Both the position numbers and the translations under genes were made by a program. The notes beneath the pieces were generated by a model, which searched no databases, was not told the origin of the DNA, and saw only the letters and a program-made list of their open reading frames with translations. Below, piece by piece: positions 3,128 to 54,650 of a stretch of 64,000 bases of DNA. The DNA lies in contig CAZKMA010000021.1 of assembly GCA_964553615.1 (NCBI GenBank), positions 4,402 to 68,401 of the forward strand. The letters are read 5' to 3'. Source of the stretch: an uncultured Spirochaetales bacterium. Its GTDB lineage: Bacteria > Spirochaetota > Spirochaetia > DSM-27196 > DATKUC01. Each line of letters starts with the position of its first letter. The stretch's first letter is position 1.

Positions 3128-4381
3128 ATGCAATTCTCTCAATTCGGTGAAAAGCTTGCCGGCCATTCGGGGATACTCCAGCTCATGGACGATCTCGGCA
3201 AGGCGTTGCAGGGGCCTGAGAAGGTACAGATGCTCGGCGGAGGAAACCCGGCGCATCTGCCGCAGATGAATGCGCTCTGGAGAGCGCGGATGGGCGAAAT
3301 CCTTGCCAATCAGGATGAGTTCGAGCATATGGTTGCGGACTACGACACGCCCCGCGGAAAGGACGCATTTCTGGAGTCGATCGCCGGGTTCCTCCGACGA
3401 CAGTACGGATGGGCAATCGGCCCGGAAAATGTCGCAGTTACCAATGGCAGCCAGAGTGCGTTTTTTTTCCTCTTCAACATGCTTGCGGGCCCGTATCCGG
3501 ACGGAACCAACCGCAGGATTCTCTTTCCGCTGGTACCGGAGTACATCGGGTATGCGGATCAGGGTGCTCACGACGATATGTTTGTCGCGGCCATGCCTAA
3601 AATCGACGAGCTGGAGGATCGTTCCTTCAAATACCATGTGAACTTTGATCAGCTCCCGATCGACGACACGGTTTCTGCCATCTGTGTTTCGCGGCCAACA
3701 AACCCGACCGGAAATGTTCTGACCGACACTGAAGTTCTTCATCTGGCTTCGCTTGCCGAGGAACGCGGAATTCCACTTCTTGTAGATAATGCGTACGGCA
3801 TGCCGTTCCCCGGCATCATATTCACGGACGCTTCTCCGGTATGGAACAGGAACATTGTGCTCAGCATGAGCCTTTCCAAGCTTGGACTCCCGGCGGTCAG
3901 AACAGGTATCGTCGTGGGACGTGAGGACATCATCCAGGCGCTTTCGAGTGTAAACGCAATTGCGAGTCTCGCGAACGGGAGCCTCGGGCAGGTTCTTACG
4001 AAGCCCCTGTTCGACGATGGGAGTATCGTTTCCCTCGTTTCGGAGGTTGTGCGTCCGTTCTACGAAGCGCGCGCGAAGCAGGCACGATCCTGGATTCGCG
4101 AATATTTCCCCGCCGATCTGGACTACGCCGTACACGTGTGTGAGGGATCTCTCTTTCTCTGGATCTGGTTCCGGGGACTGAGCGGCACCTCACGCGAGCT
4201 GTACGAACGGCTGAAGCGGCGGGGTGTTATCATTGTGCCCGGGGAGTACTTCTTTTTCGGCATTGAGGAAGACTGGCCGCACAGGAGACAGTGCATACGC
4301 GTAAACTACTGTCACAACGAAGAATCCGTGCGGACCGGCATCAAAATAATTGGCGAAGAGGCGCAGAACCTCTCCCGATGA
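3128..4381 (+). CDS. avtA: valine-pyruvate aminotransferase-like PLP aminotransferase
   Basis: MQFSQFGEKLAGHSGILQLMDDLG...LGGGNPAHLP...YDTPRGKDAFLESIAGFLRRQYGW...SLSKLGLP (PLP-Lys context) resembles AvtA. The start is moved to the ATG at 3128 because the track start at 3026 overlaps the wrbA terminator. Confidence 0.8.
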   Translation: MQFSQFGEKLAGHSGILQLMDDLGKALQGPEKVQMLGGGNPAHLPQMNALWRARMGEILANQDEFEHMVADYDTPRGKDAFLESIAGFLRRQYGWAIGPENVAVTNGSQSAFFFLFNMLAGPYPDGTNRRILFPLVPEYIGYADQGAHDDMFVAAMPKIDELEDRSFKYHVNFDQLPIDDTVSAICVSRPTNPTGNVLTDTEVLHLASLAEERGIPLLVDNAYGMPFPGIIFTDASPVWNRNIVLSMSLSKLGLPAVRTGIVVGREDIIQALSSVNAIASLANGSLGQVLTKPLFDDGSIVSLVSEVVRPFYEARAKQARSWIREYFPADLDYAVHVCEGSLFLWIWFRGLSGTSRELYERLKRRGVIIVPGEYFFFGIEEDWPHRRQCIRVNYCHNEESVRTGIKIIGEEAQNLSR

Positions 4382-4388
4382 GGCAAAC

Positions 4389-5399
4389 ATGGTCGTAGTA
4401 ACCGGAGCGACCGGTCATCTTGGTGGCGTCCTCGTGCGGCGCCTGATCGATGCCGGTGAAACCGTCAGAGTAATTACCCGAAGGCAGAGCGTGATGAGCG
4501 GACTCGAAGGCCTTCCCGTGGAGATACACGACACCGGCCTGCTCGACACGGCCGCTCTCGAACGTGCGTTTTCCGGCGCCTCGGTCGTGTATCACGCTGC
4601 AGCACTGATCTCCTTCGCCGGCGGCAGTACGGAAGAGCTTCACCGTGTGAACGTCGACGGGACGCGAGCCGTCCTGGACGCCGCACGGAATGCCCGCATC
4701 GGACGGTTCGTCCACGTAGGCTCAATAGAGACCTTTCCCCTTACCCTTGGTAAGTTCCCGATTACCGAAGCTTCCGGGATAGATCCCCTCCATACGGTGA
4801 TGGAATACGGGAAGACGAAGGCGCTTTCGACGCAGATGGTGCTCGACGCCGCCGCGGACGGACTCGATGCGGTCGTTGTCTGTCCGACGAGTTTCCTCGG
4901 GCCGCCGGATTTTCGTCTTTCGCCCGTCGGGAGACTGATCCGTGACTTTGCGCTTGGACGGCTTCCTGCCGTGGTTGACGGCGGTTTCGACTTCGTTGAC
5001 GTCCGGGATGTGGCAGATGGAACGCTGCGTGCAGCAGAGTTCGGGAGAACGGGAGAGTGTTACCTCCTTTCCGGAAGATACACGACTCTTCCGCAGATGA
5101 TGGAGATGCTCAGGGAAATGACGGGCCTTTCGGGGCCAAAGCTCTGCCTCCCGACGCGCCTCATTCTGCCGTTCATGCCGCTCGTCGAGATGTATTACCG
5201 GATTGCGGGCAGGCCACCGCGTTTCACCCGGGACAGCCTGCACATTGTTTCTCTTCATGCCACGGTGGATTCGTCCAAGGCGAGAGACGAGCTTGGCTAC
5301 AGTCCGCGACCGCTCACTGTCACACTGTCGGACACGCTTTCATGGTTCAGACAGGCCGGAATGATCCCTCCGGAGGTGGCTACCACAGAAACGGAATGA
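4389..5399 (+). CDS. NAD-dependent epimerase/dehydratase (dihydroflavonol reductase / HpnA-like SDR)
   Basis: Rossmann motif VVVTGATGHLGGVLVRRL at the N-terminus, and a YGKTK catalytic Tyr-x3-Lys. The ATG at 4389 follows the avtA stop. Confidence 0.8.
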   Translation: MVVVTGATGHLGGVLVRRLIDAGETVRVITRRQSVMSGLEGLPVEIHDTGLLDTAALERAFSGASVVYHAAALISFAGGSTEELHRVNVDGTRAVLDAARNARIGRFVHVGSIETFPLTLGKFPITEASGIDPLHTVMEYGKTKALSTQMVLDAAADGLDAVVVCPTSFLGPPDFRLSPVGRLIRDFALGRLPAVVDGGFDFVDVRDVADGTLRAAEFGRTGECYLLSGRYTTLPQMMEMLREMTGLSGPKLCLPTRLILPFMPLVEMYYRIAGRPPRFTRDSLHIVSLHATVDSSKARDELGYSPRPLTVTLSDTLSWFRQAGMIPPEVATTETE

Positions 5400-29649: not shown

Positions 29650-29785
29650 TCCGACCGCCCTTTGACGTCTGGGCACACGCAGTTGCGGACCTGTCTTTCA
29701 GCACTATCATCCTTTTTGTAAGCAATCTCAATTGCATTTCACCTGGTTACCTCCATGCCGCAGTCAACGTCCATCTCGAAATGGT

Positions 29786-29814
29786 TTGACATATGCCGAG
29801 AAACAGGATAGGAT
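29786..29814 (+). promoter_or_regulatory. sigma70-like promoter of the FMN_bind gene (TTGACA-17 nt-TAGGAT)
   Basis: Consensus -35 TTGACA at 29786-29791, a 17-nt spacer and TAGGAT at 29809-29814, about 45 nt upstream of the ATG. Confidence 0.55.
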
Positions 29815-29859
29815 AAAATTATACCCAATTCACATCATAGCTTACCACGGGAGGAGAAT

Positions 29860-30693
29860 ATGAAGCGGCTAATGGTAGTCATGCTGTTGCTCGCAGTCGC
29901 ATTTGCGGCGTTTGCGAACGGCGAGAAGGAGAAGGGCGCTATCGGCTCTTCTGGGGCCCTGAAGGACGGAAGCTATTTTGCGACCTACACGACCGCAGAC
30001 AATCACGGCTGGCAGCCGTTCATGCGGATCGAGGTTGCCGGAGGTAAAATCGCTTCGGTTGCATACAACTATGTGAGTCCGGACGGAAAGATGTTCAAGA
30101 CTCAGGACAATCAGTACAACACAACCATGCTGAAGTTTGCCGGAACGAATCCTGAGAAGGCATACCCGGAGCTTGAAAAGCGGATAATATCCGCCCAGTC
30201 CGGCAAGATAGACGCGGTAACCGGGGCTACGCACTCGAGTGAAACCGCCATGGAGCTTGCTTCCGATCTTGTTTCTCGCGCCGGGACAGGAAATACCGCC
30301 GATCTGGTTCTGCCTATGACGGGAATGTATACGGCGGAAGACAAGCCGGACGAGCACGGCGGGTGGATCGGTCATCTTGAGGTGACATTCGGCGATCAGG
30401 GGAAGGTCACGAAGGTGGTCTACGACGAGGTCAAGAAAGAGAATAACAAGATTGTCGCCTACAAAAGCAAGGACATGGAATACGAGAAGAACTTCAAGGC
30501 CAAGAGCGGCATCAGTCAGGGAGAAGCTTACACCAGGCTGAGTGCCGAGCTGACGGCGACCGCCAAACTGAATACCGTTGATGCGGTCACGGGTGCCACA
30601 GGAACGAGTGAGCGGTTTAACGCGCTTGTGGAAAATATCAAGATGCAGCGGACAGGTGTTGCGCCTTCGGCAATAAAGGCGATGCTCAAGTAG
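29860..30693 (+). CDS. secreted protein with two FMN_bind domains (PplA-like flavinylation substrate)
   Basis: Type-I signal peptide (LLAVAFAAFANG). There are two repeats, each containing the ApbE target motif D-A-V-T-G-A-T (DAVTGATHSS at 30211-30240 and DAVTGATGTS at 30580-30609). Confidence 0.85.
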   Translation: MKRLMVVMLLLAVAFAAFANGEKEKGAIGSSGALKDGSYFATYTTADNHGWQPFMRIEVAGGKIASVAYNYVSPDGKMFKTQDNQYNTTMLKFAGTNPEKAYPELEKRIISAQSGKIDAVTGATHSSETAMELASDLVSRAGTGNTADLVLPMTGMYTAEDKPDEHGGWIGHLEVTFGDQGKVTKVVYDEVKKENNKIVAYKSKDMEYEKNFKAKSGISQGEAYTRLSAELTATAKLNTVDAVTGATGTSERFNALVENIKMQRTGVAPSAIKAMLK

Positions 30694-30719
30694 CCTGGAA
30701 TTGCTCCGCAGAGATCGCC

Positions 30720-30769
30720 ATGGCCGTTGTCCTCCGATGTCCTGCACCGGAGGCAACGGCCATTCTTTC
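30720..30769. terminator. long hairpin between convergent FMN_bind and apbE genes (probable bidirectional terminator)
   Basis: atggccgttg(t)cctcc ... ggagg caacggccat forms a ~15-bp stem with one bulge, followed by tctttc on the + strand. Confidence 0.55.
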
Positions 30770-30788
30770 GGCGTGTGTTCTCAGACTC

Positions 30789-31925
30789 TCAGTTTGTTAC
30801 GTTGTCCGCCTTTTCTATCTGATCAATGGTGGAAACGGGGGGCGTATAATTCGGACCGGCTGCTGCGGTGGAAATATCCTCGATGTGGTAATCGGAGTTG
30901 GTGAGGGTGAACTTCCCATCCAGGCCGGGAGTGTAGTAGACCTTCTTGTTGTCGGTCACAAATATGGCATCGACACCCTTCATGTCACGGATCAGTTTAT
31001 AGCCATTTTCAAGCCCAAGCACGAATACCGATGTCGAAAGTCCGTCACAGATCATGGATACGTTGCTGTAGATCGTGGTGCTGGTCAGATGGTCCTGCAC
31101 CGGATAACCTGTCTTCGGGTTGATAATGTGGTGATACATGACTCCGTTCCTGATGAAGTAACGTTCGTACGGTCCCGAGGTAACGACCGACATATTTGTT
31201 GCGTTAACGATACCGAGGTAGCCACCGCGCGGGGCAAACGGTGTCTGGATTCCGATGCGCCAGGGCTTCCCGTCTGGTTTCGCGCCCATTACCAGGATGT
31301 TGCCGCCGAAATCGAGGATGGCGTGTTTGACCCCTTCCTTGATGAGAATCTGTTCAGCCTGGTCTGCAGCGTATCCCTTGGCGATGCCACCCAGATCGAT
31401 TCCCATCCCTTTCTTCTCCAGATACACGGAGTGATCGGCTTCATTCAATTTTATCCAGTGCCAGTTCACCAGAGGAAGCAGTTTCTTGATCTCTTCCGGG
31501 GATGGAAGTTGTTCATGATCGGTGCCGATGCCCCATAGTTTTACGATGGGTCCGACCGAGATATCGAAGGCACCGTCAGTCAACTTGCTGAATTCGAGTG
31601 CCGTCTTTATTACGTCGAAGACGTCTGGGGTTACCTGTACCGGTTTGATGCCGGCATTCCTGTTTATTTCGACAACTTCGCTGCTGTTTCCTTCCGTTGT
31701 CATGCGGTTATGAATGTCGCGCACGCGGGCAAACGCTTTTTCGAGAACCGAGGGGTCTACCCGATCGTACACGGTCATGGTAATGGTGGTGCCAAGAAGC
31801 AGTTCCGTGCGGGAAAATGGCTTCGTGGATGTCCTGCTGCCACATCCAGTGACCAATACCAGAGTGAGGGTAGCCACGCCCAGCAGCGCAGCCGTTGTCC
31901 AGCGAAACGGTGTTACTCTGTTCAT
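30789..31925 (-). CDS. apbE: FAD:protein FMN transferase (ApbE/Ftp), lipoprotein
   Basis: Lipobox LVLVTGC. ApbE blocks are present (TMTVYD...RDIHNRMT...GAFDISVGPIVKLWG..., GIAKGYAADQ, VVTSGPYERYF). It also has a ~40-aa C-terminal extension. Confidence 0.9.
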   Translation of the reverse strand: MNRVTPFRWTTAALLGVATLTLVLVTGCGSRTSTKPFSRTELLLGTTITMTVYDRVDPSVLEKAFARVRDIHNRMTTEGNSSEVVEINRNAGIKPVQVTPDVFDVIKTALEFSKLTDGAFDISVGPIVKLWGIGTDHEQLPSPEEIKKLLPLVNWHWIKLNEADHSVYLEKKGMGIDLGGIAKGYAADQAEQILIKEGVKHAILDFGGNILVMGAKPDGKPWRIGIQTPFAPRGGYLGIVNATNMSVVTSGPYERYFIRNGVMYHHIINPKTGYPVQDHLTSTTIYSNVSMICDGLSTSVFVLGLENGYKLIRDMKGVDAIFVTDNKKVYYTPGLDGKFTLTNSDYHIEDISTAAAGPNYTPPVSTIDQIEKADNVTN

Positions 31926-31938
31926 GATAGAACTATTA

Positions 31939-32029
31939 GTACCATATTTATCGAATTGAGGTCAATGTATTACTCTTTTAGCAAGTAAAAAGTGATAACT
32001 GACTTGCGTTAATTCGATAAACATGGTAC
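31939..32029. promoter_or_regulatory. 19-nt inverted repeat pair (GTACCATATTTATCGAATT / AATTCGATAAACATGGTAC) in the apbE-ndh divergent promoter region
   Basis: The arms at 31939-31957 and 32011-32029 match at 18/19 positions as reverse complements and are separated by 53 nt. Each arm overlaps the spacer and -10 of a predicted outward-facing promoter. Confidence 0.6.
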
Positions 32030-32091
32030 GATAATTTTATACCGAAACATCACCATCTTTTTGGGAAACCAAAATCAGCGGAGGCCGCAGT

Positions 32092-34269
32092 ATGGCAGAG
32101 AAGACACGTATTGCTGTGTTAGGAGCCGGTTACGCCGGCATAGCTGCTACGAAACTGCTCTACAAGAGGTACAAGAAGAACCCCAACGTAGAGATCAGTA
32201 TTATCGACCGGAACCCGTACCACACCCTCATGACGGAGCTTCACGAAATTGCCGGGTCCAGAACCGAGCCTGGGGCAGTTCAGGTGAGCCTGGCGAAGAT
32301 CTTCGGCGGGAAACGCATGAAGGTCGTCATTGACGAAATCGATACGATTGAGTTCGAACAGAACAAACTTGTGTCGAAATTAACTGAATACCCCTACGAC
32401 TATCTCATCATCGGCGCCGGCGCTGAGCCGGAATTCTTTGGAACGCCCGGTGTCCAGGAGCATTCCTTTACCTGCTGGTCCCTGGAGGATGCAATTCGCA
32501 TTCGCGTCCACGTAGAAGACATGTTTCGCGAGGCAGCCAAGGAGCCGAACGAGTCGAGGCGCAGAGAACTGCTGACATTTGTACTGGCTGGGGCGGGGTT
32601 TACCGGCGTTGAGCTTGCCGGAGAACTTCTCGAGCGGCGCGATGTGTTGTGCGAGCAATATCATATCAACCCCAAAGAGGTCCGGGTCGTCATTGTTGAA
32701 ATGAAAGACACGATCCTGCCAATTCTGCCGGAATGGCCACAGAAGAAGGCTGAAAAGTACCTCCAGAAACGTGGCGCAGAAATCATGCTCAATGCTCCGG
32801 TAGCGGAGGCTTCAGAGGGTTCTGTACGGGTTGCCGGCGATCACGACCTCGAGATCCGTACCGAAACCTTTATCTGGACCTGCGGAGTTCACGGGTCCGA
32901 GTTCACTTCGAAGATTGAGCTGACCAAGGGGAACTGTTCGCCTGACCACGGAGCGGTTGCTTCAATCGAGGGTATTCACGGCATGGCCGGATGCCATTTC
33001 GACGACGACGAACGGTATGTCGTCGGAGAGCGCGGTCGGATCAGTGTAAACAAATACTGTCAGTCCGTGGACTTCGACAACGTCTATCTCGTCGGGGACG
33101 TCATGTGGTACGTTATTGGCGACAAGGTCGTGCCGCAGATAGTCGAGACGGCGTTGCAGTCAGGAGAAGTCACTGCCAGGAATATCATCACGGATATTGA
33201 GGGTGGTGAGAAAGAGGGCTTCAATCCGAAGTACCACGGATTCATGGTTTCAATCGGCGGGCGGTATGGTGTAGCTCACGGCATGGGGATGTCGTTTTCC
33301 GGGTTCATGGCCATGTCTGCAAAGCACCTCATTAACCTGCATTATCTGCTCGGACTTGCGGGAATTAACGCCGTGTGGGAATACATGCAGCACGAGTTTT
33401 TCACAATGAAGGACCGGCGCAGTTTTATCGGTGGACACCTGTCATGGAAGATTCCGTCCTATTGGGCCTTTCCGCTTCGATTGTGGCTCGGCGGAAAATG
33501 GCTTTACGAGGGAATCAAGAAGGTCACCGAAGGCTGGCTCAATCCCGGCAAGGAGGGACTCGCGCACGTATGGTCAGGAGCCATTCGAATGCCTGGTGTG
33601 AGTTTTGCTGCCGAGGCAACGTCCGCAGCAACGGCTGCGACGGGGGCAGCGGCGGGACACGTTGCGCAGGCGGCAACGAGTGCTGCGGCAAATGCGACCT
33701 CGGCAGCGACGGCGGTTGCACAAGCTGCACCGGCAGCCGCTCAGGCGGCGGCTGACGCAACATCGGCAGCAACTGGGGCAGTAGCCGGCGCGGTAGCCGG
33801 TGCGGCACACACTGCCGCAGCTGCGGCCTCCTCCTACGGGCAGGCACTGAGCGGCCCATGGGGCGTGTACACCTGGTTTGCCCACAATGTCCTCAGCGCT
33901 TCGCCGCTGCTGGCGTTTCTTCTGCAGGCCGTCGTTGTCATAGTTGAGATCGGCCTTGGACTTGCGTTCGTTGGTGGAGCCTTCACCTGGCTTGCCGCTG
34001 TCGTATCCATTCTCATTGGCGTAATGTTCATCGCCTCAGGATGGGGAAGTCCGGAGCTGCTCTGGTACATGTTCGGCGCTCTCGTCATGATGGGTGGTGC
34101 CGGGCGCGCTCTCGGCCTCGATCACTGGATCATGCCGTGGCTGAAGGGCTGGTGGAACGGTACCCGGTTTGCCAAGCGCACCTACCTCTACACCGATGAA
34201 CCGCACGATCGATGGAACGGAAAGCGAGCAAGTCGACCGCAATCCAACATTTCTGTGTCATCACGATAG
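32092..34269 (+). CDS. ndh: type II NADH dehydrogenase (NDH-2) fused to a C-terminal DoxX/DoxD-like membrane domain
   Basis: Two Rossmann motifs (IAVLGAGYAGIA and FVLAGAGFTGVELAGEL) and the NDH-2 C-terminal blocks up to ~aa 430. These are followed by WLGGKWLYEGIKKVTEGW, an Ala-rich linker and then ...VEIGLGLAFVGGAFTWLAAV...MMGGAGRALGLDHW, which is DoxX-like. Confidence 0.8.
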   Translation: MAEKTRIAVLGAGYAGIAATKLLYKRYKKNPNVEISIIDRNPYHTLMTELHEIAGSRTEPGAVQVSLAKIFGGKRMKVVIDEIDTIEFEQNKLVSKLTEYPYDYLIIGAGAEPEFFGTPGVQEHSFTCWSLEDAIRIRVHVEDMFREAAKEPNESRRRELLTFVLAGAGFTGVELAGELLERRDVLCEQYHINPKEVRVVIVEMKDTILPILPEWPQKKAEKYLQKRGAEIMLNAPVAEASEGSVRVAGDHDLEIRTETFIWTCGVHGSEFTSKIELTKGNCSPDHGAVASIEGIHGMAGCHFDDDERYVVGERGRISVNKYCQSVDFDNVYLVGDVMWYVIGDKVVPQIVETALQSGEVTARNIITDIEGGEKEGFNPKYHGFMVSIGGRYGVAHGMGMSFSGFMAMSAKHLINLHYLLGLAGINAVWEYMQHEFFTMKDRRSFIGGHLSWKIPSYWAFPLRLWLGGKWLYEGIKKVTEGWLNPGKEGLAHVWSGAIRMPGVSFAAEATSAATAATGAAAGHVAQAATSAAANATSAATAVAQAAPAAAQAAADATSAATGAVAGAVAGAAHTAAAAASSYGQALSGPWGVYTWFAHNVLSASPLLAFLLQAVVVIVEIGLGLAFVGGAFTWLAAVVSILIGVMFIASGWGSPELLWYMFGALVMMGGAGRALGLDHWIMPWLKGWWNGTRFAKRTYLYTDEPHDRWNGKRASRPQSNISVSSR
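33607..33834 (+). repeat. Ala/Thr/Ser low-complexity coding tract inside the ndh fusion gene
   Basis: Translates to AAEATSAATAATGAAAGHVAQAATSAAANATSAATAVAQAAPAAAQAAADATSAATGAVAGAVAGAAHTAAAAASS. The nucleotides are GCN-rich with reiterated gcagc/gcggc units. Confidence 0.8.
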
Positions 34270-34384: not shown

Positions 34385-35512
34385 ATGACGCACTTCTGGG
34401 ATGACTTCCCGGCTATTCAACATGATCTGGAACGTGTCCATGATGTCATTCTGGACAATGTTCGCAGCCGGAACGTGACTATCACCCGCGCATTGACAAA
34501 TCTTGCGAATCGGAACGGAAAGTTGCTCCGGCCCGGGTTCGTGCTGTTGAGCGCTCGCCTGAAGGGCGACCTCATGAACGGAAATGACGGCAACGGGACG
34601 ATGGGCAATTTCGTGGAAAATGGCGATTTCGTCGGAAACGGCGGTTTCGTTGGAAACGGTCATGGATTTTCGGCCGAAGCAGCGGAATCCGGTCGTGGTG
34701 CCCGCACAGTTGCCGAAATACGGCCACTTCCGGAGAAGATCTACAAAATTGCCGCGTCCGTCGAGATGCTGCACATGGCGACCCTCATTCACGACGACGT
34801 GATAGACGAGGCCAACAACCGCCGCGGTCAACCGACGGTTCACGTCGAATACGGCAAGAAAGAGGCCATTCTGATGGGTGACTACCTCTTCAGCCGGACC
34901 TATCGGCTTCTTGCCGACAATACCAGCATCGAGAACGCAAAACGGCTTGCTCTGGTCGTGAGCCAGATTGTAGCCGGCGAAATCGATCAGTCTATTCCCG
35001 GCGAGCAGATCAGCTACGGACCGCGAACCTATATTCGCCGAGTCGTCGGAAAGACTGCCACCCTCATAGCCGATAGCTTCTATCTCGGAGCTTCGGAAGC
35101 CGATATGGGCCTTGCCCGGAGTACCTATCTCAGGCGGATTGGATACAGCATCGGGATGGCGTTCCAGATAATCGACGATATTCTCGATTTCACCGGTTCG
35201 GCCGATGTGCTCGGGAAGGCGCCGGGTTCCGACCTCCGTCAGGGAGTTGTGACGCTGCCACTCATCTACGCAATGCGCGCAAACGGCAAGGACGTTATCT
35301 GGAAAAGACTCTACACCCCGGAGAGGCTTACGAGTTCCGACTTGACCGCAATTATCGAGGCAATAGACCGGGAGGGCGGGTTCGCCATGGCCCGGGACAA
35401 AGCGGAGCAGTATACCCGCCGTGCTCTACGCCAGATCGCGTTTCTCCCACGCGGCGAGAACAAAGACGTACTGGCAGCGGTGGCCAGAAAGCTTCTCGAT
35501 CGTACCTACTGA
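34385..35512 (+). CDS. long-chain polyprenyl diphosphate synthase (hepta/octaprenyl type) with Gly/Asn/Phe repeat insertion
   Basis: FARM LIHDDVIDEANNRRG and SARM FQIIDDILDF are both present, as is KLLRPGFVLLSARL. A ~50-aa insertion precedes the FARM helix. Confidence 0.9.
   Translation: MTHFWDDFPAIQHDLERVHDVILDNVRSRNVTITRALTNLANRNGKLLRPGFVLLSARLKGDLMNGNDGNGTMGNFVENGDFVGNGGFVGNGHGFSAEAAESGRGARTVAEIRPLPEKIYKIAASVEMLHMATLIHDDVIDEANNRRGQPTVHVEYGKKEAILMGDYLFSRTYRLLADNTSIENAKRLALVVSQIVAGEIDQSIPGEQISYGPRTYIRRVVGKTATLIADSFYLGASEADMGLARSTYLRRIGYSIGMAFQIIDDILDFTGSADVLGKAPGSDLRQGVVTLPLIYAMRANGKDVIWKRLYTPERLTSSDLTAIIEAIDREGGFAMARDKAEQYTRRALRQIAFLPRGENKDVLAAVARKLLDRTY
34604..34675 (+). repeat. in-frame 18-nt tandem repeat (3 good copies + 1 degenerate) inside the polyprenyl synthase gene
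   Basis: ggcaatttcgtggaaaat / ggcgatttcgtcggaaac / ggcggtttcgttggaaac / ggtcatggattttcggcc encode GNFVEN GDFVGN GGFVGN GHGFSA. Confidence 0.85.
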
Positions 35513-35535: not shown

Positions 35536-37089
35536 CTACTCCGGGTATTTTCGCCGTATTTCCCTGAAGGTGTCCTGGACTCCAACGAGCAGGTCCACCA
35601 GAACGGGGTCGAAATGCTTCTCGCGATCACCGACAATGTCTGCCATCGCCTGTTCGTGACTCCAGGGTTCCTTGTAGGGCCGTTTTGATGTCAGAGCATC
35701 GTACACGTCGGCCAGTGCCGTTATCCGGGCGGAGAGCGGGATCTCTGAACCAGCAATTCCGTGCGGGTATCCTGTGCCGTCCCACCGCTCGTGGTGATGC
35801 AGGGCGATTCGTGAGGAGAGAGTCAGGAACGATTGCTTACCGAGCTCCTGGTCCGCCTCGTTCAGGATGTTCCAGCCCCAGATTGTGTGTTTCTTCATGA
35901 TTGTCCACTCCTGCGGCGTCAGGGTCGCCTCTTTCAGGAGGATGCTGTCCGGAACTCCAACCTTTCCTATGTCGTGCAGCATGGACGAGAGAAAGATGTC
36001 ATCGATGTACTCGTCGGAGATGTTGAATTTGTATGGCTGGTGCCGGTAGACCTCGGCCGCAAGCGCGCCATTGTATTCGGATATCCTGTACAGATGTTTC
36101 CCGGTTTCCAGGTCACGGTACTCGGCAAGCGCGGCGAGGGATTTCATGGCGGTGGACTGGGTTTTTTGCAGCACCGAGGTCGTTGCCTGGAGTTTTTCGT
36201 TCACGACCCGATGTCGTTCCAGTGTTTCCTGAAGGTCTTCATTCAATCTGAGATAGTTGCTTACATCGAACAGGACTCCCAGCGTGTTCCTCCCTACGAG
36301 CGTTGCCGCATTCTGGACAATGCGGGTCTCTCCTTCCCCGGTGCGGATATGGGCGTTGATTGATCCGGGTTGATCCTGCAGAATTCGAAGCATTCCCTCC
36401 TGCCACAGATCATCTCCGACGAAGAACGGTCCGTGCTCGTTCACCTCGTCGATGTTGCCGTACTTGAACGTCCGCAGAAAGACCTGATTTGCCGTAACAA
36501 AGCGACCGGCCGGGTCGGTGACGTACATCGGAACGTTCAGCATGTTCATGAGGCGGCCAAGAACGCCGGGCGTCAGTGAATCCGGTTCGTCACTCTTGCG
36601 GCGGAGCATTCGGGTTTCCTTGCGGAGCATTCCGACGGTTGTCAGATCCTGAGCCTTGGATGCGAGGAATCCGAGCATGAGCGCATTCTGCTTGAGAAAT
36701 CGGCGCGGGGATTCGCACTTCACGAGAATGGCGCCGTTCGCATCGCCCACCGGGTTTTTCAGCGGATAGTAAAGGGTAACATCCTTCTGGAATTTCTGCG
36801 GGAATATGCTCTGCGGAACAGGCGATTTCCCGTTCAGAACCGCGGGTCCGCGCGGGAAGAGCGCCGCCTGCCGTGAAGGGAGCAGAAAACTGAAGTCTAC
36901 CGGTTTTTCCCCGTCAGGGCTGTCGAAGTACACAATTCTCGTCGAGTGAACGTCAGGGAATCGTTCAATCCAATCGAGAAGCCTTTTCATCTTCTGCGAA
37001 TGGGACAATTCGCAATCGAGTTCTTCGAACAGGTCCAGCAGCTGTTCCAGCACGCGTGTCATCCGATTCCACTCCCCTCTCATTACCAC
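35536..37089 (-). CDS. HD-GYP domain cyclic-di-GMP phosphodiesterase with N-terminal sensory (GAF/PAS-like) regions
   Basis: The C-terminus has HDIGKVGVPDSILLK...HHERWDGTGYPHG...ALADVYDALTSKRPYK, a canonical HD-GYP. The start is uncertain (GTG 37089, ATG 37083 or ATG 37062). Confidence 0.85.
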   Translation of the reverse strand: MVMRGEWNRMTRVLEQLLDLFEELDCELSHSQKMKRLLDWIERFPDVHSTRIVYFDSPDGEKPVDFSFLLPSRQAALFPRGPAVLNGKSPVPQSIFPQKFQKDVTLYYPLKNPVGDANGAILVKCESPRRFLKQNALMLGFLASKAQDLTTVGMLRKETRMLRRKSDEPDSLTPGVLGRLMNMLNVPMYVTDPAGRFVTANQVFLRTFKYGNIDEVNEHGPFFVGDDLWQEGMLRILQDQPGSINAHIRTGEGETRIVQNAATLVGRNTLGVLFDVSNYLRLNEDLQETLERHRVVNEKLQATTSVLQKTQSTAMKSLAALAEYRDLETGKHLYRISEYNGALAAEVYRHQPYKFNISDEYIDDIFLSSMLHDIGKVGVPDSILLKEATLTPQEWTIMKKHTIWGWNILNEADQELGKQSFLTLSSRIALHHHERWDGTGYPHGIAGSEIPLSARITALADVYDALTSKRPYKEPWSHEQAMADIVGDREKHFDPVLVDLLVGVQDTFREIRRKYPE

Positions 37090-48353: not shown

Positions 48354-50045
48354 CTAGAGCAGATTCCGTTCGCGGAGTCTCTTCGCAATTTGATCGAAGC
48401 TGATCCCGTACTGCTCGGCGATGTCCCTGGCGAAACTCTTGCCTTCCGGGGGACCGCTGCGGATGTGGTAGGTGCGAACGGCGGACGCCGATCCGGCGTC
48501 CTCCCGGATTCCGGCAACGAGACTTCCCAGGCGGCTTTTCCCCTGAAACTCCCGGTTCAGAGACTCGATCCGTTCAGCCAGCCCGTGAAGGTGGGTGGCA
48601 AAGATCCCGCGTGTACCGAGCACGCACAGGGCCCGAACGATATCCTCGGCAAGGTATTCGCCCTCTCCCGGGCTCGTGCTGGTCAGAGATTCGTTCAACA
48701 GAATGACCGAACGACTGGTAATCTCTTCAAACATGCGTGCAAACCGTTCTGCCTCTTCGCCGAGCCTGCCGGTATTCAGCAGCCCGCGTTCTTCCGCAGG
48801 GAAATGAGTCACAATCCAGTCGGCCGGGCTCAATGCAGCCGAACGTGCAGGAACGAAGATGCCGCACTGGGCAAGTACCTGGAGTAAGCCGATTCCTTGA
48901 GTGAAGGTTGTCTTTCCGCCCTGGTTGGGCCCGGTGAGAATCTGGATTCTGCTCTCATCGTTGAAATATGCGCTATTCAGCACCAGGTCTTCTGAAATGT
49001 CGGGCGGGGCCTGCCCATGCGCATCGTGGGGCACAAGACGGAGAGCCAGGACGATATTGTAAAAGTCCGCAGCTTCCAGATGGCGGTCGTCGATGGGCCG
49101 GATCGCCGGCTTGCACACCGGGAGCCCCGCCTTCTCGATTGTCTGGAGCAGGGTCAATGCTCCGAGGTAGAATGCCGCTTCATGCTGGAGCGTTTTCAGG
49201 ACTGCAGTGTTCGTCGTGATGTAGCGGTTGAGAACCCGGACCATGGGCCGGACGGTGGAACCAAGAAGCTGCTCCAGATCCTGAAACAACGGCGCAAGAG
49301 GGACCTTGAGCCGCGGATCGTGTGCGTATTCGTCTGGAACCGGGGATGAATGCAGTGGAGTGGAAGTCTTGAATGCGTCGTCATCCGGCCGTCCGAAGAG
49401 TCGGGGAAGCAGAGACTTCTCCTGGTACTCCTGTTCGTTGATGGAGATCAGCGTCGCATCCACCGGACGAAGACGTTCGTCCAGATTAATGCCGATCGTG
49501 ACGCTTCGCTTGCGGCGCAATCCCTCCCGCAGGGTCGGAAGCTCCCGACGAAGGCTCACGAACTGGTCCGTGCGCGTCGTTTTCTCCAGATGGTCACGCA
49601 GGAGAAGCAGACCCTGCGAACGGACCTCCGAATCAACGTGATGAAATGCCTCGTGGAGAGTATCCAGACACTCCACGTACAGTTCGAGCTCGCCGAGTCG
49701 CCAGATAGCCTCCTGAAGGGGAGAGCGGGAATCCCGCCGCGTATCCGCGAAAAGCGCAATCTCGCTGATTTTCGGAATAATCTGATGGAACGCGGTCGCT
49801 ATTGCGGGAGATCGGTACAGGTCCTCGAATATGTCCTGGCGGTATCGAATTACGGCTTCTTCTGTCGGTGGCGAGGAGAGGATCTCGAGTACGTGCTGGT
49901 AGTTTATCCCCTCCCGGCTCATTCTCCGGGCAATCTCATCGAGCCCGAGGTCTTTTACGGTCTCATCGGCCAATTGCCGGGAATTGACGCGAGCCTCCGC
50001 CTGTTGTGGAAAGAGGAGACTTGTTCGAAACGCATCTTGTCGCAC
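48354..50045 (-). CDS. MutS-related ATPase (MutS domains III + V only; no mismatch-binding or Smr domain)
   Basis: Walker A TGPNQGGKTTF, then Walker B ILLNE and TH..L as in the MutS ATPase domain. The helical N-terminal core is MutS_III-like. GTG start. Confidence 0.8.
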   Translation of the reverse strand: MRQDAFRTSLLFPQQAEARVNSRQLADETVKDLGLDEIARRMSREGINYQHVLEILSSPPTEEAVIRYRQDIFEDLYRSPAIATAFHQIIPKISEIALFADTRRDSRSPLQEAIWRLGELELYVECLDTLHEAFHHVDSEVRSQGLLLLRDHLEKTTRTDQFVSLRRELPTLREGLRRKRSVTIGINLDERLRPVDATLISINEQEYQEKSLLPRLFGRPDDDAFKTSTPLHSSPVPDEYAHDPRLKVPLAPLFQDLEQLLGSTVRPMVRVLNRYITTNTAVLKTLQHEAAFYLGALTLLQTIEKAGLPVCKPAIRPIDDRHLEAADFYNIVLALRLVPHDAHGQAPPDISEDLVLNSAYFNDESRIQILTGPNQGGKTTFTQGIGLLQVLAQCGIFVPARSAALSPADWIVTHFPAEERGLLNTGRLGEEAERFARMFEEITSRSVILLNESLTSTSPGEGEYLAEDIVRALCVLGTRGIFATHLHGLAERIESLNREFQGKSRLGSLVAGIREDAGSASAVRTYHIRSGPPEGKSFARDIAEQYGISFDQIAKRLRERNLL

Positions 50046-50549: not shown

Positions 50550-50621
50550 GGGCGATTAACTCAGTGGGAGAGTGCTTCCTTCACACGGAAGAAGTCAGCA
50601 GTTCAAATCTGCTATCGCCCA
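50550..50621 (+). tRNA. tRNA-Val (anticodon CAC)
   Basis: Manual cloverleaf fold. Acceptor GGGCGAT/ATCGCCC, D arm ACTC-AGTGGGA-GAGT, and anticodon arm CTTCC-TTCACAC-GGAAG. Variable loop AAGTC, T arm AGCAG-TTCAAAT-CTGCT, discriminator A. The 3' CCA is not encoded. Confidence 0.9.
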
Positions 50622-50695
50622 CGAAGGCCGTAGCCTCCCCGGCCCAGTCTGCAAATCCCTCAATGATTCATGGCCACACCTGCTGCCCACCGACG

Positions 50696-54539: not shown

Positions 54540-54590
54540 CGGCGGTGCACGTCTGTCCGTGGTGGCTCGGATCGCTTCCGGCGATTCCGA

Positions 54591-54650
54591 GCCGGCGGCT
54601 ATCGAAGCCGGCGGCAATCGAGCCGGCGGCTATCGAAGCCGATGGCGGCG
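54591..54650. repeat. 15-16-nt tandem repeat, 3 full + 1 partial units (gccggcggcWatcga[a])
   Basis: The units are at 54591-54606, 54607-54621 and 54622-54637, with a partial unit at 54638-54650. They lie in the convergent gap between the membrane protein and rluA-family genes. Confidence 0.8.

Follow-up and report, generated by a model that had tools for sequence, protein, structure and literature searches.

A 64-kb stretch of DNA from an uncultured member of Spirochaetia (64,000 nucleotides; hereafter the window) carries two divergent genes, apbE and ndh2, separated by a gap of 166 nt that holds both arms of an inverted repeat. The minus-strand gene apbE (30789-31925) encodes an FAD:protein FMN transferase (Pfam ApbE, E 8e-95; the NCBIfam ApbE match falls below its curated cut-off), whose translation has the signal peptide and the lipobox (LVTGC) of a lipoprotein. 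The plus-strand gene ndh2 (32092-34269) encodes an ndh2-type NADH dehydrogenase of 725 residues (Pfam Pyr_redox_2) in which an Ala-rich linker is followed by a C-terminal membrane domain; in their source records the Ndh2 homologues are called NADH dehydrogenase, and a DoxX match was seen in one of them. A gene for a long-chain polyprenyl diphosphate synthase (34385-35512, plus strand; Pfam polyprenyl_synt, closest NCBIfam model heptaprenyl diphosphate synthase component II) comes after ndh2 in 66 of 81 loci and is probably co-transcribed with it. On the far side of apbE lies a gene for a PplA-like FMN-binding lipoprotein (29860-30693, plus strand; Pfam FMN_bind; NCBIfam lipo_FMN_PplA, E 2e-40, 138.8 bits with a cut-off of 325), and genes for a NusG_II protein and a NYN/OST-HTH protein are also close by.

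Gene content of the interval from the NusG_II gene to apbE (window 29650-30790; 2230-4660 in L004-L006) varies among close relatives: the window has the PplA-like lipoprotein there, L004-L006 have UbiA and a two-gene ABC transporter, and in L007 the lipoprotein and the transporter occur together. The Ndh2 linker (window 33500-33900) is a low-complexity stretch rich in Ala, Thr and Ser with local GC up to 0.70, and its length is highly variable among the homologues, which total 615-766 residues. In the N-terminal part of the polyprenyl synthase gene an 18-nt tandem repeat (3.1 copies; window 34604-34659) gives rise to a repeated G-x-F-V-x-N-G-like hexapeptide insertion. Genes related to cyclic-di-GMP signalling adjoin the ndh2 operon in two contexts, namely the window clade, where a 515-residue HD/HD_5 protein is encoded convergently to the polyprenyl synthase (window ~35536-37083; from L001 2265-3812), and L173, where an FHA-GGDEF protein (3940-4860) is encoded immediately upstream of ndh2. 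Scanning of the whole window also detected a 16-nt tandem repeat of 3.3 copies at 54590-54641, and the sole Rfam/tRNA match in the 64 kb was a tRNA-Val(CAC) at 50550-50622.

The left arm of the inverted repeat (31939-31957) reads GTACCATATTTATCGAATT on the plus strand and AATTCGATAAATATGGTAC on the minus strand, on which it forms the apbE-side box; the right arm (32011-32029), AATTCGATAAACATGGTAC, forms the ndh2-side box on the plus strand. The two arms are reverse complementary at 18 of 19 positions with 53 nt between them, exactly as a preliminary description of this DNA had stated. The repeat is real by several measures. At up to 3 mismatches the 19-mer occurs in two places only in the window, which are the arms themselves, with 0.01 occurrences expected, and when all 64 kb were scanned for inverted repeats (18/19 or better, gap 3-100 nt), this one alone was returned; 30 shuffles keeping the local composition gave 0. 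The intergenic region is the same (172/172), orientation included, in three independent assemblies of one and the same species (L001-L003; 99.85-99.89% identical). Similarity between the arms ends abruptly at the edge of the 19-mer, the flanks matching at 4/10 and 4/9 positions; we rejected a recent inverted duplication, as this sharp end is better explained by selection on the box than by the copying of a longer segment. Within a single arm no internal dyad symmetry was seen except for the tetranucleotide GTAC.

Both arms occupy the same place in a predicted promoter, each filling the spacer and running 3 nt into the -10 of its own promoter. As sigma-70-type we counted hexamers resembling TTGACA (-35) and TATAAT (-10) with 16-18 nt between them. 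On the plus strand the predicted -35 of ndh2 is TTGCGT (32004-32009; TTTACn in most relatives) and the predicted -10 is TACGAT (32027-32032; cross-species consensus TACnAT), with a spacer of 17 nt. On the minus strand the predicted -35 of apbE is TTGACC (31960-31965), invariant in the clade, and the predicted -10 is TACTAA (31936-31941; TACTAT in the relatives), with a spacer of 18 nt. Hexamers, spacers and coordinates thus agree on both strands with those given earlier. Since the hexamers of the window are weak in comparison with the consensus (7/12 for TTGCGT-17-TACGAT and 8/12 for TTGACC-18-TACTAA), a promoter scan of the window at a threshold of 9/12 reported neither promoter. The scan of L005 picked the exact homologous pairs on both strands, TTTACA-17-TACGAT and TTGACC-18-TACTAT, each at 9/12, and that of L006 picked the apbE-side promoter, also at 9/12. 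Together, the conservation of the hexamers in orthologues and the picks in L005 and L006 support the original proposal of two divergent promoters, putatively sigma-70-like, that carry one arm each in an equivalent position.

The two predicted leaders are of different kinds. The ATG of apbE, at 31925, is separated from the predicted -10 by 10 nt in all five members of the clade (TACTAA-TAGTTCTATC-ATG in the window, minus strand, 31926-31938; TACTAT-TGATTTCATC-ATG in the relatives), and a purine-rich Shine-Dalgarno sequence precedes it in none of the five. The claim that apbE has next to no leader and no Shine-Dalgarno sequence therefore holds throughout the clade, and the distance of 10 nt suggests that the apbE mRNA is leaderless or has a leader of 3-5 nt. 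The Shine-Dalgarno sequence of ndh2 is clear (GGAGG, 32080-32084), and just upstream of it, in the predicted leader, there is a small hairpin, TTTTGG-gaaa-CCAAAA (32059-32074, plus strand), whose folding z of -0.7 is not significant as a single sequence. The stem reads CTTTGG/CCAAAG in L005, L006, L011 and L012, amounting to one compensated pair relative to the window (about 5966-5985 in L005), and the relatives have a second CTTTGG upstream that could pair alternatively. No terminator-like feature was found in the intergenic region.

Conservation of the region was examined in 80 species-level loci around Ndh2 homologues, taken from genome assemblies, and in several more obtained via exact-protein look-ups. 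In the closest relatives (L005/L011 and L006/L012; Ndh2 80-87% and ApbE 69-73% identical) apbE and ndh2 are still divergent and both arms are kept. Identity between the window and these four relatives reached 89-95% in the left arm; compared with the L005/L006 relatives, it was 79-84% in the right arm, 60-66% in the DNA between the arms, 40-52% in the ndh2 leader and 47-50% at third codon positions of ndh2. With 79-95% identity in the arms versus 40-66% elsewhere, constraint in the region is strongest on the arms, and as the most conserved intergenic part they fit the operator for a co-regulating protein, controlling both genes, that had been suggested for them.

Exploration of more distant species revealed that the ndh2-side box extends well beyond this clade. 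It is present, with the consensus TTTACn-n-AATTCGATAAAtnnGGTACnAT and in a constant position and orientation, in ~11 further species in which Ndh2 is 55-87% identical; loci with the box at the same promoter position include L005/L011, L006/L012, L007, L013, L019, L022, L025, L033, L053 and L172, the last a further species in which it reads GATTCGTTAAATAAGGTAC. The preliminary description had made its interpretation depend on finding the repeat in orthologous intergenic regions, and there it is, as both arms in the four closest relatives and as the ndh2-side box in the others. Several of the box-bearing species have no apbE upstream of ndh2. The apbE-side box is confined to the window's own clade, being absent or degenerate in L007 and in more distant species; on the apbE side of L007, GTACCATA is retained and TTATCGAAT is lost. 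On this comparison of sequences the ndh2 copy of the box, widespread in the lineage, is judged to be the older one and the apbE copy a recent, lineage-specific addition. A metagenomic relative of L012 (L118) has a 17-nt deletion, ttgctttacctaattcg, on the reverse strand ~60 nt past the left arm, so that the ndh2 -35 is missing, AATTCG has gone from the right arm and ATAAATGTTGTACTATAAGG is what stays; either a naturally occurring deletion variant of the promoter/operator or a fault in the assembly would account for it.

These distributions also bear on what the unit of recognition is. The preliminary description had proposed one dimeric or looping repressor for both arms; the view of the two 19-mers as one dyad read by one dimer is one that we abandon: the unit is a single asymmetric arm, and ~11 further species have the ndh2-side box only. 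The region looks like an inverted repeat because two directional promoter/operator modules face opposite ways. A weight matrix for the 19-mer, built from the arms and run over 750 kb (the window plus 90 loci), showed the box to be specific to this locus, with matches almost only upstream of ndh2; all of the ndh2 matches share the strand of the gene and precede its start codon by 47-110 nt, and the sole other strong matches are the apbE-side copies in the window clade. Alignment of 14 sites gave TTtaC-nn-AATTCGATAAATAaGGTACtAT, in which a -35 (TTKACn) and a -10 (TACnAT) stand 17 nt apart, or 18 nt at the apbE copy; the flanking TTtaC and TACtAT are thus conserved with canonical spacing. Information in the alignment peaks in TTCGATA and GTAC, at ~1.6 of the possible 2 bits per position, and is lower in the 5 nt between them; TTCGATA is near-invariant inside the spacer and GTAC bridges into the -10. 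From a repressor operator one expects conservation beyond the hexamers that polymerase contacts, a position between -35 and +10, and specificity for the regulated genes; here TTCGATA is near-invariant, the arms are conserved above neutral and the matrix matches fall almost only at ndh2 and apbE promoters.

A wider signal of the same kind was detected upstream of ndh2. Within 140 nt of the gene, TATCGA/TCGATA occurs in 25 of 79 species-level loci versus 6.1 expected and 4-11 in controls, in a test whose species are partly non-independent, and it is the second most enriched of all 6-mers there, the first being the Shine-Dalgarno sequence AAGGAG. About 12 other spirochaete species carry a perfect palindrome, (T)TATCGATA(A), upstream of ndh2.

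The search for a regulator and for further sites was carried out at several scales. No candidate regulator gene was found within ~10 kb of the arms, and clustering of neighbour genes at 81 loci revealed no recurrent DNA-binding family adjoining ndh2. The adjacent NYN/OST-HTH protein was rejected as regulator, as it is predicted to bind RNA and its presence or absence in L007 and S. pacifica is independent of the box. Searches of the 64-kb window with the 19-mer, with ATTCGATAA-N5-GTAC, with TTCGATAA and with a 12-nt core matrix returned only the two arms as sites, the other matches, at 49833 and 21884, being chance-level or inside genes. Scanning of metagenomes with the promoter-plus-box pattern GTACNNNNNTTATCGAWTTN{2,3}GKMAA yielded 79 loci, among which only L100 and L118 are apbE/ndh2 relatives and the others are chance-like; two that we examined by hand have a phage-like context (L104) and a position inside a gene (L130). 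A regulon of the kind that the 19-mer or its half-site had been expected to define did not emerge from the window, the metagenome scan and the 3-10 kb flanks of the relatives, which gave no convincing site beyond apbE/ndh2 loci. In a comparison by eye with known consensus sequences, meant as a lead, neither those of sigma-28, sigma-54, ECF sigma and FNR/CRP nor those of Fur/Zur/PerR, ArcA, ModE, LexA, CtsR, PadR and the DnaA box fitted both conserved blocks. Searching the literature for TTATCGATAA brought up nothing relevant, the results being primers, a variant Zur box of mycobacteria and a Borrelia probe unrelated to the box.

Other clades carry other boxes in front of ndh2. Rex-like TGTGAA/TTCACA boxes, at up to 3 mismatches, are present upstream of ndh2 in 7 of 79 loci and in 0 of the control regions. 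Boxes of this type lie ~90-125 nt upstream of ndh2 in L015, L018, L020, L023, L029, L030, L043 and L056, belonging to Alkalispirochaeta and related MAGs (e.g. ATGTGAAAGAATTCACAA in L015 and the recurrent ATTTCACAACAAA). At no locus does a Rex-like box occur together with the TTCGATAA-GTAC box. The best intergenic match of the window to the 18-bp Rex palindrome, TTGTGAA-N4-TTCACAA, has 6 mismatches, and nothing at up to 2 mismatches was found in the 64 kb. The window box was rejected as a Rex site, since it has no TTGTGAA/TTCACAA half-sites, lacks the defining palindrome and is itself non-palindromic; it may be a functional replacement for one. In L036, L041, L042 and L045 an 11-3-11 palindrome, ATATCAATATT-aaa-AATATTGATAT, lies ~40-70 nt upstream of ndh2, the cultured Salinispira pacifica (CP006939; L170 4950-4975) has TATCAA-tcat-TTGATA at its ndh2 promoter, and another cultured relative, Gracilinema caldarium (L078), has a TATCGATAA box. 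A half-site like TATCRA is common to the window box and to the 11-3-11 and Salinispira pacifica palindromes, though in DNA so rich in AT this could be chance. Given that sister clades carry other palindromic boxes at this place, the ndh2 promoter appears to be a recurrent target of repressor-type control. More speculatively, the TCGATA box might mark an undescribed regulator of NDH-2/flavin electron-transfer genes across Spirochaetota that replaces Rex-like boxes in some lineages and reads the half-site TATCRA at very different spacings, an idea that we put forward as a tentative one with the balance against it. The half-sites would then overlap as TTATCGATAA in some species, be separated by 4 nt in Salinispira pacifica and by 13 nt in the L041 clade, and be split between two promoters, with 59 nt between them, in the window clade, which, if true, would mean an unusually flexible or monomer-binding DNA recognition.

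Taking the evidence together, we lean, with modest confidence, towards a reading in which the arms are two copies of one directional promoter/operator module whose box is bound by a sequence-specific protein encoded elsewhere, probably a repressor that co-regulates apbE and ndh2. The module would combine a sigma-70-type promoter (-35 TTKACn, 17-18 nt spacer, -10 TACnAT) with a spacer box, wATTCGATAAa, that ends 6 nt before the -10 and would lie at about -25 to -19 from the predicted transcription start. A putative DNA-binding protein, its gene not being nearby, would recognise this box; as the box is placed between the -35 and the -10, the bound protein would most likely exclude RNA polymerase and hence act as a repressor. 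With polymerase blocked at both promoters, both genes would be repressed. The ndh2 copy would be the ancestral, widespread one, and an apbE copy that arose in the window's own clade only would put the flavin transferase and the NADH dehydrogenase/polyprenyl synthase operon under shared control. By analogy, Ndh2, ApbE, the polyprenyl synthase and the PplA-like lipoprotein look like a flavin-based extracellular-electron-transfer chain. In this account we infer promoter function, binding of a protein to the box, repression and the role in the pathway. Counting against it, the hexamers of the window are weak, neither a candidate regulator nor a regulon emerged from the searches above, and a box without dyad symmetry is unusual for a classical dimeric repressor. 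As far as sequence can tell, the motif is a putative operator embedded in divergent promoters, ordinary in architecture; the arrangement is real and conserved, yet it is an ordinary kind of bacterial gene control.

A version of this control close to the idea of the preliminary description was also considered, in which one oligomer, such as a tetramer, sits on both arms, loops out the 53-nt segment with both -35 hexamers and shuts the two promoters cooperatively. Two near-identical boxes that overlap both core promoters are what such a looping repressor would use, and the arms stand exactly 72 bp (~6.9 helical turns) apart, start to start, in 5/5 two-arm loci. This constancy carries little weight, however, because the five loci are all close relatives in which the whole region is free of insertions and deletions. 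A loop of 72 bp is moreover short, and a candidate protein for it was not found. The lone ndh2-side box is maintained in ~11 further species, so pairing is not required and looping is not needed to explain the data; we consider it possible but doubtful.

We regard it as unlikely, and more so than looping, that the box is intrinsic to the promoter, with RNA polymerase itself, and no separate regulator, recognising TTCGATAA-N5-GTAC by means of an alternative sigma factor or by contacting the spacer in an unusual way. The geometry TCGATAA-N5-7-TAnnnT, always pointing toward the gene, is found in about 10-11 species, and a fixed distance of 5-7 nt between the end of TCGATAA and TAnnnT is what one would expect of a polymerase-recognition element. 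Yet a canonical -35 (TTKAC) and -10 (TACnAT) at 17-18 nt already flank the box, and sigma-28 and sigma-54 do not fit by inspection, there being neither a TAAA at -35 nor a GC at -12. Elsewhere in the 64 kb TTCGATAA is absent, indicating that it is not a general promoter feature. In L017, L048, L049 and L173, furthermore, the 5' leader holds the box, ~12 nt ahead of the Shine-Dalgarno sequence and away from promoter-like hexamers; a position that shifts around one promoter is more typical of an operator than of an element recognised by polymerase.

Activation in place of repression, i.e. a bound protein stimulating two intrinsically weak promoters, would suit the low scores of the window hexamers (7/12 and 8/12), but relatives with good hexamers carry the same box, and the box, at about -30 to -13, sits inside a spacer of 17-18 nt. 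Activators of the MerR type, which bind in the spacer, need spacers of 19-20 nt and palindromic sites, and activators of other types bind at or upstream of the -35. We therefore think an activator site improbable.

Least probable is a structural or mobile element, whether cruciform, RNA stem-loop, invertible promoter or miniature transposon: the region as a single strand does fold into a long hairpin (z = -6.2), but this signal comes wholly from the arms, because the 53-nt loop is unstructured (z -0.6 to +0.7 in three species), and in the five-sequence alignment 0 of 19 pairs show a compensatory change and 5 of 19 vary only by loss of complementarity, as expected of two independently constrained protein sites and not of a selected stem. 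The cruciform or RNA stem offered as an alternative in the preliminary description is thereby contradicted; Rfam gave a chance-level match only (E 0.48), neither transcript would contain the arms if the promoters are as predicted, since both starts would lie downstream of them, and inner palindromes between the arms appear in the window fold only, neither significant nor conserved. An invertible promoter is contradicted by three independent assemblies with one orientation, a segment of 53 nt, no recombinase gene nearby and distant species that keep one arm only, and a miniature transposon by a single copy in the window, a metagenome scan with apbE/ndh2 loci only and a fixed orthologous position.

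If the box is an operator, a defined 19-mer, conserved in about a dozen species, offers a handle on the way in which uncultured spirochaetes turn on an electron-transfer chain that depends on flavin and oxidises NADH. The locus would be a clean example of regulon growth, a promoter/operator module having been copied before a second gene, apbE, in one lineage, and of operator turnover, related clades using the TCGATAA box, Rex-like boxes or other palindromes at the orthologous promoter. The general mechanism is textbook; the value lies in the annotation and in a bait sequence for finding the regulator.

The products of the locus resemble those of the flavin-based extracellular-electron-transfer locus of Listeria monocytogenes, which comprises ndh2, fmnB/apbE, pplA, dmkA and dmkB. 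The likeness concerns the regulated genes and not the repeat itself, and among those the kinds of genes only: an NDH-2 with a C-terminal membrane domain, an ApbE lipoprotein, a PplA-like lipoprotein and a polyprenyl synthase, a UbiA prenyltransferase being present in the relatives and not in the window. It differs in that the host of the window is a spirochaete with two membranes and that the PplA match, at 138.8 bits, stays short of its cut-off (325); among the genes of the window locus neither EetA nor EetB was identified.

For the box itself, three known signals invite comparison. For short palindromic boxes of the TTATCGATAA type, the BioR signal of Alphaproteobacteria, TTATMKATAA, is a lead only: the perfect palindrome found upstream of ndh2 in other spirochaetes shares its right half with the window box, AATTCGATAA, whereas the window clade has not kept the left half, the genes around the box are unrelated to biotin and no GntR-type gene is nearby. 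Rex operators are found at promoters of respiratory genes, such as yjlC-ndh and cydABCD of Bacillus subtilis. What the window has in common with them is a box, here for a putative repressor, that is on or next to the promoter of a gene for a type II NADH dehydrogenase; unlike the Rex operator, the window box is non-palindromic and lacks the half-sites. Paired operators in divergent regions are bound by NagC at nagE-nagBACD of E. coli and underlie the ara and gal loops. These systems share with the window two similar operators, one for each of two back-to-back promoters, and one protein can control both; their operators, however, are each a palindrome bound by a dimer, with looping demonstrated, whereas the boxes of the window are asymmetric, only 72 bp apart, and the second of them appears to be a recent, lineage-specific addition. 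The closest known case by function is thus a Rex-type operator at an ndh promoter, and by geometry it is a pair of divergent operators such as those of nagE-nagB.
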